Below, piece by piece: positions 6,001 to 9,000 of a stretch of DNA of 11,378 nt. Made by a program: the position numbers. This DNA comes from a virus (lineage: Duplodnaviria > Heunggongvirae > Uroviricota > Caudoviricetes), in IMG/VR virus record IMGVR_UViG_2681813225_000001, positions 1 through 11,378 of that record; one strand, written 5' to 3'. Positions within the stretch are counted from its first letter, which is position 1. Every line of letters starts with the position of its first letter.

Positions 6001-9000
6001 TTGTGCATGGATGGTTCCAGTACAGAGCGTAATAATAAGGACATGAAAATGAAATGGTATGAACTGGCTAGATCCAGAATGAAAGAGCTCGGCATAACTC
6101 AAGAGAAGTTAGCCGAAGAGCTAGGTATGACGCAGGGTGGAATTGGACACTGGTTGCGCGGATCTCGTCATCCATCTCTTAGTGATATTGGTGTGGTGTT
6201 TAAATACCTTGGTATTGATAACATATCATTCAACCACGACGGGACATTTTCACCTGTTGGCGAATACTCATCGGCCCCAGTTAAAAAACAATATGAGTAC
6301 CCTGTTTTTTCTCATGTTCAGGCTGGGATGTTCTCTCCAGAACTCAGAACCTTTACCAAAGGTGATGCGGAGAGATTGGTAAGCACAACCAAAAAAGCCA
6401 GTGACTCTGCATTCTGGCTTGAGGTTGAAGGTAACTCAATGACCGCACCAACAGGTTCCAAACCTAGTTTTCCTGACGGGATGTTAATTCTGGTTGACCC
6501 TGAGCAAGCTGTTGAGCCCGGCGATTTCTGCATAGCCAGACTTGGTGGTGATGAATTTACCTTCAAGAAACTGATCAGGGATAGCGGTCAGGTGTTTCTA
6601 CAACCACTAAACCCGCAATATCCAATGATCCCATGCAATGAGAGTTGTTCCGTTGTGGGGAAAGTTATCGCCAGCCAATGGCCTGAAGAGACGTTTGGGT
6701 AAAGAGGATAGATGGAGTTTAATGGCCATGAGTATCAAGCGGTCAAAAAGAAGTTCATCTATTCATTGAAAGCATAAGGCCATCTGAGTATATCCGTAAT
6801 GATCTGGATATTGTCTATAACATCAATGACCGGACGATAGATATCGGTGAGCAGCGTCCTGTATGGCAGGGTGAGGCAGGTGAAAAAACGTCCTGCCATC
6901 AACAAGAATCAAGTGCATCCGCTCTCTGGACAGATGGAAAATTTATTGGATGCAAAAAGATATGAAATAACACCTGTATAGCACGGAGCTTTCTCTGACC
7001 GATGCACTTGAAGTTGTTAGGGCTGACCCAGCCTGCTGTTTCTTTAGGTAAGAGAAAAGAGATTTAGGAGATGAAAGGTCGCAGAGGTGCGGCCTTTTTT
7101 ATTGAGAGTGGATCTTGAACGGAAATTCTCAAGACTTGAGTCTTGCATGCAAATCAATTCCTGGATAAACTCGATCTGAGTCAATAACTTAGAGAGAGAG
7201 CAAATGGCAAAGTCAAACGTTAGCGTGCAGGCATTCAAGGACTTCCTTGAAGAGCTTATGTCGCTGAACATAATGAAGGAGGCCACCGCTCGAAATTTAA
7301 AAAACTCATCCGCTCGCCTCTTAACGGTAGTCCAAGAAGAGGAAATGGGTGATGTTACTCAGCTTGATGTGAATGAGCTTGCCGAGCGATACATCAACGC
7401 AACTGAGCCGAAGCCTAGCGACAGCAGCATTACTGCATATAAAAGCCGCATGGAAAGTGCAATCAAAAAGTTTGTAGCTTTCCAGTCTGGTGAAGAAATC
7501 CCATACACTCCGATTGACAAAGAATCCAGTGAGGAAAAAGATTTGACTGGCGAACCAACAAAAGTCGAAGGCAAGGCTAATGCACTTCATACCTATGATC
7601 TTCCAGTAGTTCTTCGACCTGAATCAGGGGTTACAGTAACGATTAAAGGCATTCCTAACGATATCACAAACGAAGAAGCCGAACGCATCTCTTCAATTCT
7701 GAAGGTTTACGTTCGGCCTCAATAATGCAAAAGCATTCAGCACAATGTCCAACTCCCCAGTCCGACATTGATGCTGTTTAACCAGAGCCTCCAAAAGGAG
7801 CCCTTGTTAAGGTACACAATATTTGCGATGTAACCTTAGCGCGTCTGGTACATTTTTTCAAGCGGTTGTAGGGCTGCCGCCAATATGAGAAAACACAGAT
7901 GTCTACATACAATTTGAATGACCAATTCGATCGAGAAGTTCATGTGAATGCCTATGAACGGATAAGGCATGGAAATCTTGAACATGTGTGTGAGCATTAT
8001 CGCTCAAGGCCACACCGCTAATCATCAACCCGGCCTCCATGCCGGGTTTTCTTTTCCTCTCGCCCAAAAAAACACATAACCAATTGTATTTATTGGAAAA
8101 TAAATAGATACAACTCACTAAACAACGCAATTCTGATCTCTCCTTACATCGCCGAGGCAATACACCCACGCTAAAAAACAATACTATTAAATACAAAGCG
8201 TTGTAAAAAAACGCCCCATTTTAGAACAAATTGTATTGACCAAGTTAAGTACATATCGTACTATTTAACCATCAGCAGGACGCTGGAAGCCAAATGGAAC
8301 AGACTGGCAGGCTCTTTAAACAACGTCGACTCTCGACTACGTGGCTGAAAAGCCAGATCACCCAACCACATAAGCTGTGGGATGCAATGCCGAAGCAACC
8401 GTCTCAGGAGGAGCTTCGAGATTGCATCGCCAAAGTTTATTCGGGAGGAATCTATGTCCAGAAAAACAGAATTTAAAGGCACCGCAGCTTCTCGCCGTAG
8501 AGCTCGTCGCGCAAACCTGCAAAGTCAGGAGGCGATTAGCTCCGACAAACTACACAGGCCAACCCCATCACGAGTGGTCTTACAATGCAAACGCAAACCA
8601 GCAATGAGAGCAGAAGTAATAACACTGACAACGTTGACCAGAAAATATGAAGGCTCAACTTGTCTTCCAAATGTAGCTCTTTACGCGGCAGGCTACCGTA
8701 AATCCAAACAACTGACAGCAAGATGACTTGTGTTGGTCGCCAGAAAATGAAATTAGGCAGCAAACCACTTATTTGAGGTGAGATATGACAAAATCATGGA
8801 GCGTACCTTTTCCTGAATCAGAAACTGAACATGATGGAATGCCTGTTTTCTGGAGATTCCAGGCGACAGTTGAAGAAGATGGGATAAAAATATTCGCACT
8901 TCAATATATAGCTTTTCATCAGACAGAGCATTATGCATGGTTGGTTCCTGCGCATTGGATTGTTAATTTTAAACCAGCACCAAATCAGTGGTTACAGGAA

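Follow-up and report, generated by a model that had tools for sequence, protein, structure and literature searches.

An insulated accessory cassette between cI and pL of lambdoid prophages, with a possible addiction-like role

What a lambdoid phage keeps between its repressor gene cI and its leftward operator–promoter region OL/pL, the place of rexAB in phage lambda, is the question raised by a stretch of 11,378 nucleotides of a caudoviricete phage (IMG/VR record IMGVR_UViG_2681813225_000001; hereafter the window). The + strand of the window corresponds to lambda's leftward direction, and along it lie cro, cI, the interval studied here (6703-8055), OL/pL, nutL and N; a first-pass annotation had placed the main gene of the interval in the position of rexAB, and the frame genes are as it stated. 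This gene is co-directional with cI. We find that the interval contains a mobile unit, 7076-8055, which comprises in order an intrinsic terminator, a promoter-like region, an open reading frame (ORF) of 173 codons (ORF173), a structured spacer, a small ORF and a second terminator (Table 1). We rate this cassette as an insulated prophage accessory or addiction-like unit built from undescribed parts, and our preference, held tentatively, is for a self-contained cassette expressed in the lysogen, in which ORF173 restrains a harmful activity encoded in cis.

The sequence of the cassette has long been known, annotated as hypothetical. The interval is 100% identical to that of VT2-Sakai (prophage Sp5 of O157:H7 Sakai), Nil2, 2851, Stx2-1717 and 40 other phage records, and the cassette is found at >=99% identity in 234 of 5426 complete E. 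coli genomes, in copies that are nearly all identical. The window differs from Sp5 itself, which it matches at 99.4% over 5319-8787 with divergence on either side. ORF173 had first been described as an acidic protein matching nothing recognisable; the acidity (isoelectric point (pI) 4.85) and the gene are real, with homologues in 44 clusters, and the protein is already catalogued as ECs1184 (H0093; WP_001130059.1), a member of phrog_2602 (E 3.5e-102). New here are the fold assignment, the sizes of two protein families, the borders of the cassette, a pairing rule between ORF173 and the small ORF, a link of the latter to XRE and ImmA/IrrE genes, and a DUF3024 pseudogene. In E. coli O157:H7 the Stx2a prophage type is clinically dominant, and the cassette adjoins its genetic switch; the exact borders of the cassette, the fold, the obligate-looking small partner and the XRE/ImmA link yield testable hypotheses on lysogen stability, Stx phage induction and toxin release.

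A mobile unit between two terminators

The left edge of the unit is an intrinsic terminator that also ends the cI/pRM unit, with a hairpin at 7073-7098 (AGGTCGCAGAGATGCGGCC) and a T-run reaching 7103. This hairpin is kept in E. coli, Proteus, Salmonella, Serratia and Cronobacter, and the sequence to the left of it diverges. A second intrinsic terminator forms the right edge. Both had been reported at the outset, at 7079-7103 and 8029-8055, and both were recovered. Salmonella prophages match the window over 7076-8053 at 85.5% and Cronobacter over 7157-8057 at 84%, with flanks that are unrelated or far more diverged, and an ORF173 of 100% identity adjoins several distinct cI alleles. Homologues of at least 52% identity, where there is enough flanking sequence and the hidden Markov models (HMMs) match, always lie between a cI-type repressor (helix-turn-helix (HTH) plus S24 domains) and N, on the cI strand. 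Such loci occur in Proteus/Providencia, Salmonella, Serratia, Cronobacter, Yersinia and other E. coli phages, which answers in the affirmative, for several genera of Enterobacterales, whether the gene recurs between cI and N in other prophages; four of the related loci (designated L; L055-L057 and L059) gave no cI or N match with the HMMs used here. Distant homologues (33-46% identity) are found in other phage types, for example by tape-measure-like long ORFs or baseplate/tail-assembly genes, and the one scan made of genome contigs returned a single Proteus locus.

A moron is a piece of extra DNA between conserved phage genes, with its own promoter and terminator, that is present in some phages and absent from their relatives. 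The cassette is likewise flanked by promoter-like sequence (a promoter suggested by conservation) and a terminator, and it is present or absent among related phages: it is missing from 933W/P27-type phages that share the DUF3024 segment described below, and the ORF173 part is replaced in locus L092. It differs from morons (Juhala et al. 2000, cited in PMC4104026) in holding two ORFs and a structured RNA region, and in a composition that is not distinct from that of its neighbours. The GC content is 0.444, against 0.456 for cI, 0.42 for OL/pL and 0.467 for the whole window, which contradicts the earlier impression of an AT-richer insert.

The putative promoter consists of a -35-like TTGCAT at 7143-7148 and a -10-like TAAACT at 7166-7171, followed by a conserved leader and a Shine-Dalgarno (SD) sequence. 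Both hexamer regions are kept across E. coli, Salmonella, Proteus and Cronobacter, the -10-like element reading TAGAAT in Proteus and Cronobacter. The element falls below the threshold of a simple promoter scanner, and because the scanner made no call at 7143-7171 we treat the promoter as inferred. Overlapping its -35-like hexamer is the palindrome proposed earlier as a possible operator (CAAGACTTGAGTCTTG), which is present as a single copy in the window against 0.03 occurrences expected by chance. Its conservation is partial: a 6+6 form occurs in Salmonella, and elsewhere the right half alone is kept, overlapping TTGCAT. Visual comparison with the six annotated operators of cI, whose consensus is roughly TACA..TGTA, showed no likeness, and the palindrome was rejected as one of them. 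Promoter- and terminator-like matches on the minus strand within ORF173 are no more frequent than expected by chance. Since the terminator at 7073-7103 bars transcripts from pRM and pRE, and pL and pR point away, expression of the cassette would come from its own promoter.

ORF173 and its small downstream partner

Close homologues of ORF173 form 44 clusters at 41-99% identity, confined to Enterobacterales, with two conserved blocks and a variable linker between them. A profile search of 1.8 billion representative proteins gave 652 clusters at E <= 1e-3 and 239 at E <= 1e-10; among the matches listed, almost all relatives are 160-200 amino acids (aa) long and matched nearly end to end. None of 46 sampled family members reaches a Pfam or NCBIfam threshold, and a few show weak sub-threshold matches to Phage_int_SAM. 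An AlphaFold2 model built from a 148-sequence alignment (mean predicted local distance difference test score, pLDDT, 89.4) has four helices over residues 8-95, a low-confidence linker at ~101-127, and a beta-hairpin plus helix at 130-168 with pLDDT ~95. On this model the N-terminal part belongs to the core-binding (SAM-like) four-helix domains of tyrosine recombinases. The catalytic domain that follows in those enzymes (R-K-H-R-H/W-Y) is not there: ORF173 has no Phage_integrase match, and after the acidic, disordered linker a module of 46 aa ends the protein. Compared with known core-binding domains (PDB 3nrw; lambda Int, 2oxo/1z1b; IntI4, 2a3v), ORF173 shares 7-13% sequence identity, and its domain is acidic where those of tyrosine recombinases are basic. 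The protein carries a net charge of -8 and its N-domain one of -3, values uncommon in DNA binders; across the family the median is 0 in the N-domain and +4 in the linker.

The C-terminal module, with the consensus PIPLR..v.i..LP.DLT..EAerIa, has no informative Pfam or PDB match; a Pfam scan of the module alone gave scattered weak DUF matches, and a profile search with it returned short ORFs alone, with no informative fusions. Matches in PDB sequence searches, whether the query was the protein itself or the profile of the family or of the C-terminal module, were at chance level, and a Foldseek search of BFVD gave no match at E <= 0.001. Neither ORF173 nor the small ORF matched any family of PADLOC-DB 2.0 at E <= 1, or any toxin or antitoxin family in Pfam, NCBIfam or PADLOC. 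ORF173 has no homology to RexA or RexB (Pfam, PADLOC, E <= 1), with which it has genomic position alone in common. A conserved protein partner was sought beside distant ORF173 relatives, where the downstream genes differ and are unrelated. Within the last 50 nt of the coding sequence, at 7675-7720 (+), lies a 21-nt imperfect inverted repeat (76% complementary), which may be RNA structure or chance.

The fold and the position next to cI raise the possibility of an accessory lysogeny regulator, whose core-binding domain would bind a specific DNA site (within the cassette the palindrome or the inverted repeat of the 7738-7776 hairpin, or else a sequence in another part of the phage) and repress a lytic or antirepressor function, like the recombinase-derived regulators MrpR/YopR of SPbeta and SroF of phi3T, to which ORF173 is alike in concept and weakly in structure. 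ORF173 does not appear to be a strong RNA binder, which would suit such a role: in a 2025 study of the RNA-binding proteome of enterohaemorrhagic E. coli Sakai, ECs1184 was recovered by TRAPP below significance (false discovery rate 0.065), and its signal in a polynucleotide kinase assay was not above that of the green fluorescent protein control (PMC7618764). The recovery weakly suggests that the native protein is made in lysogen cultures. Against regulation speak the charge of the protein and of its core-binding-like domain, with family N-domains neutral to acidic, and the lack of a second copy of the palindrome in the window. The identical cassette is moreover found in phages with different cI alleles, and the gene in non-lambdoid phages, which makes a phage-specific operator target unlikely; we consider this role rather unlikely.

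The same domain could serve recombination, ORF173 acting at core sites as a decoy that competes with or docks on the integrase of the phage or the Xer of the host, biasing integration and excision or blocking the integration of superinfecting phages. Its sole recognisable domain is that of a recombinase without the catalytic partner, a few relatives have the Phage_int_SAM matches noted above, and many relatives on viral contigs are in non-lambdoid phages. However, none of the loci examined has an att-like site or an integrase linked to the cassette, the acidic surface speaks against core-site binding, and distant relatives occur in non-mobile contexts, and we regard this as the least probable of the readings discussed here.

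The small ORF of 40 codons, previously put forward as possible, is a real gene. Its differences from the Salmonella and Cronobacter counterparts are mostly synonymous, and a 44-aa homologue stands beside the 40%-identical ORF173 homologue of SH2026Stx1. In Proteus, Yersinia and ~25 viral contigs the place of this type A protein is taken by a type B small ORF (R.KAGTPDSE...YGYKCW), and the two types are joined in one alignment by intermediates from Ralstonia and E. coli. A Ralstonia phage carries two small-ORF copies in tandem, of which the one is B-like and the other A-like. With an HMM of the combined family, a small ORF is detected <=700 nt downstream in 67 of the 86 loci with an ORF173 homologue, and the distance from the ORF173 homologue to the end of the small ORF is nearly constant at 255-335 nt. 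The family has at least 113 clusters in Enterobacterales, Vibrionaceae, Burkholderiaceae and others, all of them unannotated; it and the ORF173 family, of at least 650 clusters, are two large families defined here that have no Pfam, NCBIfam or PADLOC match. Where ORF173 is absent, members of the small-ORF family lie ~165 nt downstream of pairs of XRE-HTH and Peptidase_M78 (ImmA/IrrE) genes in four independent contexts; such XRE plus COG2856 regulator pairs include the RosmerTA type, and the spacing of the small ORF behind XRE plus M78 pairs is the same as behind ORF173.

Between the two genes of the cassette the intergenic spacer is structured. A hairpin directly 3' of the ORF173 stop codon (CAGCAnCAATGTC) has a loop of ~15 nt whose orientation in Salmonella and L087 is opposite to that in E. 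coli and Cronobacter, and in the L087 stem one C:G pair is replaced by T:A, a compensatory change; SH2026Stx1 has a canonical terminator at this place. The predicted minimum free energy (MFE) fold of the window spacer would pair the SD and AUG of the small ORF with an upstream U-run. Equivalent spacers of other variants are structured too (z -3.9 to -7.2). In the sister cassettes, ~150 nt of structured RNA separate ORF173 homologues from a type B (or, in Serratia, type C) small ORF, with compensatory changes in 17 of 39 predicted pairs; a covariance model of this type B spacer recovers four loci outside its training set at E 1e-18 to 1e-24, and this covariation-supported RNA has no Rfam family. 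The model has no match in the window's type A spacer, and for this reason the two spacers cannot be called one RNA family. A scan of the whole window against Rfam (E <= 1) gave nothing within 6703-8055, and nothing significant was found in related loci. The Stx-phage small RNAs AsxR, AgvB and Pas were considered and set aside, since their genes lie 3' of stx or close to late genes and thus outside the interval.

A keeper role in the lysogen, weighed against exclusion

In-frame deletions of Sp5 ORFs were attempted in a K-12 lysogen by Mondal et al. (2016; PMC5155283), who describe ECs1184 as having 'no conserved domains'. Only ORF21 (ECs1180) and ORF23 (ECs1184) resisted deletion in this series, for a cause that the authors give as unknown (PMC5155283), which suggests that the prophage is not maintainable without ECs1184. 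Our literature search found no mention of ECs1184 beyond this paper and PMC7618764. A link between the two non-deletable genes was rejected, as they do not co-occur: the window lacks ECs1180 (83 aa), whose place is occupied by an ORF of 156 aa. A gene for simple exclusion would not typically behave so, and the failed deletion suggests a function in maintenance or as an antidote. The failure could also be technical, ORF173 being a dispensable accessory gene, lytic-only or nearly neutral; it is unexplained by its authors and the TRAPP signal is not significant. With pL and pR facing away and pRM/pRE transcripts meeting the left terminator, however, no lytic promoter reads through the gene, which is under strong purifying selection across many genera within a conserved cassette architecture, and dispensability appears quite improbable to us.

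We prefer, if cautiously, the reading in which ORF173 is a keeper. The cassette would be transcribed in the lysogen independently of pRM, from its own putative promoter, and ORF173, non-catalytic and combining a core-binding fold with a beta-hairpin/helix module, would act as autoregulator or antidote. The restrained activity may be the small downstream protein or read-through transcription towards pL, N and kil; the cassette would stabilise the lysogen in an addiction-like manner, such that its loss is not tolerated, and an anti-phage effect, if any, would be secondary and of abortive-infection type. If ORF173 is truly indispensable in the lysogen, its simplest target is within the cassette or directly 3' of it. 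Across immunity and phage types ORF173 has no constant neighbours other than the spacer and the small ORF, and any essential target is therefore most simply sought within the cassette; since the small-ORF family also follows XRE plus ImmA/IrrE pairs, ORF173 would stand in the place of a regulator or antidote. The acidity of ORF173 and the single-copy palindrome over its -35-like element also fit a keeper, an acidic pI being common among antitoxins.

The resemblance to type II toxin–antitoxin (TA) modules is one of architecture: an acidic upstream protein with a fold of nucleic-acid-binding type, a small downstream ORF, and an upstream gene reported to be non-deletable. The pairing of the two co-directional genes is kept in 67 of the 86 loci, but they are separated by 173 nt that include a hairpin or terminator. 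The cassette differs from TA modules in having no homology to any TA family and in its structured spacer, and toxicity is hypothetical. A further reading, which we consider possible but doubtful, is that ORF173, the spacer and the small ORF form an undescribed toxin–antidote or abortive-infection cassette, in which the catalytically dead ORF173 would be the sensor or antidote, functionally interchangeable with XRE plus ImmA/IrrE, and would control a widespread unannotated family of His/Cys-rich effectors of 40-60 aa, possibly zinc-binding; were this true, the Stx2 lysogen would depend on the cassette.

Several observations weigh against a keeper. The deletion failure is a negative result from a single study. 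At L092:1941-3860, in a lambda-immunity prophage, a two-gene cargo resembling DUF6932/PDC-M63A replaces ORF173 save its last 19 codons, and the spacer and small ORF are intact; the absence of ORF173 thus does not preclude carriage of the small ORF, at any rate where the cassette promoter has been lost as well. The type A protein (pI ~7, not hydrophobic) resembles no known toxin. Type II TA operons do not typically have a hairpin between their genes, or a canonical terminator as in SH2026Stx1. The type of the small ORF, A or B, does not obviously co-vary with the ORF173 clade beside it, distant members of the ORF173 family have no small-ORF partner, and neither cassette protein matches a TA or defence model.

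The first-pass annotation favoured an exclusion or defence module expressed from the prophage; on this reading the cassette would block other phages as RexAB, Stk and BstA do. The cassette resembles lambda rexAB, 933W stk and BTP1-type bstA in lying in the cI–pL interval on the cI strand, in being prophage-borne and in varying among related lambdoids; interval and orientation are shared with rexAB of lambda, Stk of 933W-type phages and BstA of Yersinia. Its moron-like insulation by terminators and its transfer between phages fit such a module, as does a Vibrio member of the small-ORF family within an island of AbiH and KAP-NTPase genes. Mobility and insulation, as had been proposed for an acquired defence module, are borne out; a distinct composition is not, and no PADLOC or Pfam defence model is matched by ORF173 or the small ORF. 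The cassette proteins have no sequence or domain similarity to RexAB, Stk or BstA, and the cassette has its own terminator and promoter-like region, whereas the rexAB/stk/bstA type is carried on the pRM transcript. Unlike that type, it is distal to a variable sub-slot and is reported to be non-deletable. Simple defence genes can normally be deleted.

The cargo of that cI-proximal sub-slot bears further on exclusion. The stretch 6712-7051 is no empty spacer but a frameshifted pseudogene: its match to the intact 113-aa proteins of P27 (933W-type) and SH2026Stx1 (81-85% identity, tblastn) is broken across three reading frames and has an in-frame stop inside. The intact homologue matches DUF3024 (Pfam, 2e-31) and PDC-S43 (PADLOC, 5e-42), which is a computational candidate for which our literature search turned up no functional test; this dead gene is the sole defence-candidate match in the window. 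The segment recurs at ~81% DNA identity in 98 further phage records, 933W-type phages among them, and the gene is intact beside a 99%-identical ORF173 in two IMG/VR contigs (L045 and L046) as well as in 933W/P27-type phages, SH2026Stx1 and Proteus prophages. Between cI and the cassette the cargo varies: DUF3024 in Proteus and E. coli, a 345-aa protein in Salmonella (L009), and, at L017:3899-4663 in a Yersinia pseudotuberculosis prophage, BstA (KilA-N plus BstA_C; PADLOC 1.5e-20), inserted between cI and the ORF173 homologue. The BstA insertion identifies the cI-proximal sub-slot as the variable one. In 933W-type phages, which lack the cassette, DUF3024, a 153-aa protein and the kinase Stk (PD-T4-6-like) fill the interval; the 153-aa protein upstream of Stk in P27 was examined as an ORF173 relative and rejected (hhalign probability 0.2%). 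Recognisable defence candidates come and go in the cI-proximal sub-slot, while the cassette behaves as a conserved unit. Defence-like cargo having a sub-slot of its own, and ECs1184 having resisted deletion (PMC5155283), exclusion as the primary role of the cassette is in our estimate unlikely.

Coordinates and other features of the window

The features discussed above and the genes that frame them are collected in Table 1. In addition to the annotated operators, a promoter scan places the pL-type hexamers TTGACC and TACTAT, 17 nt apart, at 8236-8264.

Table 1. Positions of the cassette, its parts, the flanking genes and comparison loci; window coordinates unless a locus is named
Feature	Position	Strand	Remarks
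cro	5716-5931	-	left-side context
cI repressor	6043/6049-6702	+	left border; HTH_3 E 1.9e-10, Peptidase_S24 E 1.1e-28; annotated cI in VT2-Sakai
DUF3024/PADLOC PDC-S43 candidate defence pseudogene	6712-7051	+	own SD right after cI stop
Intrinsic terminator, end of cI/pRM unit and left cassette edge	7073-7103	+	-15.9 kcal/mol, z -3.8
16-bp palindrome CAAGACT-TG-AGTCTTG, possible operator	7130-7145	.	overlaps -35-like element
Putative cassette promoter	7143-7171	+	TTGCAT, 17 nt, TAAACT; hexamer conservation
ORF173 (173 aa)	7204-7725	+	residues 8-95 core-binding fold (model), ~101-127 linker, 128-173 beta-hairpin and helix
Structured intergenic spacer	7726-7898	+	MFE -54.4 kcal/mol, z -3.7
Hairpin with 13-bp inverted repeat	7738-7776	+	directly 3' of ORF173 stop
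Small ORF, type A (40 aa, H0092)	7899-8021	+	phrog_21154 5e-8; motif Y.RIR.G.LEHV..H.RSRP
Intrinsic terminator, right cassette edge	8027-8055	+	stem 8027-8048 and T-run, -14.3 kcal/mol, z -4.9
OL operators and pL	8189-8264	+	right border; VT2-Sakai annotation carried over at constant offset
N	8454-8726	+	N_peptide E 3e-32
156-aa ORF just downstream of N	8785-9255	+	GC 0.357, no Pfam/PADLOC match; second moron-like slot
XRE + Peptidase_M78 + small-ORF loci	L093:1183-2292, L094:1399-2647, L095:2424-3629, L102:2415-3632		Ralstonia, E. coli, Paraburkholderia, other prophages
Type B spacer RNA	L003:6520-6680		equivalents L010, L018, L019, L058, L060-L090

Between the cassette terminator and OL/pL, prophages of Salmonella, Serratia and Yersinia carry a conserved acidic ORF of ~60-68 aa on the opposite strand (L007:5861-6064, L010:5871-6047 and L018:5904-6110, all -); its equivalent on L017 has a weak DUF2767 match, and it is absent from the window. 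At 9834-9892 (+) the window has a full-length match to Lambda_thermo, the cIII thermoregulator of Rfam (88.5 bits), which is its sole Rfam match. Further to the left, at 1640-4033 (-), the window encodes a DnaB-type helicase of 797 aa with an intein (Hint plus LAGLIDADG) between the matches to the N- and C-terminal domains of DnaB, and at the equivalent position the Salmonella locus L007 has a Toprim/LAGLIDADG protein of 968 aa.

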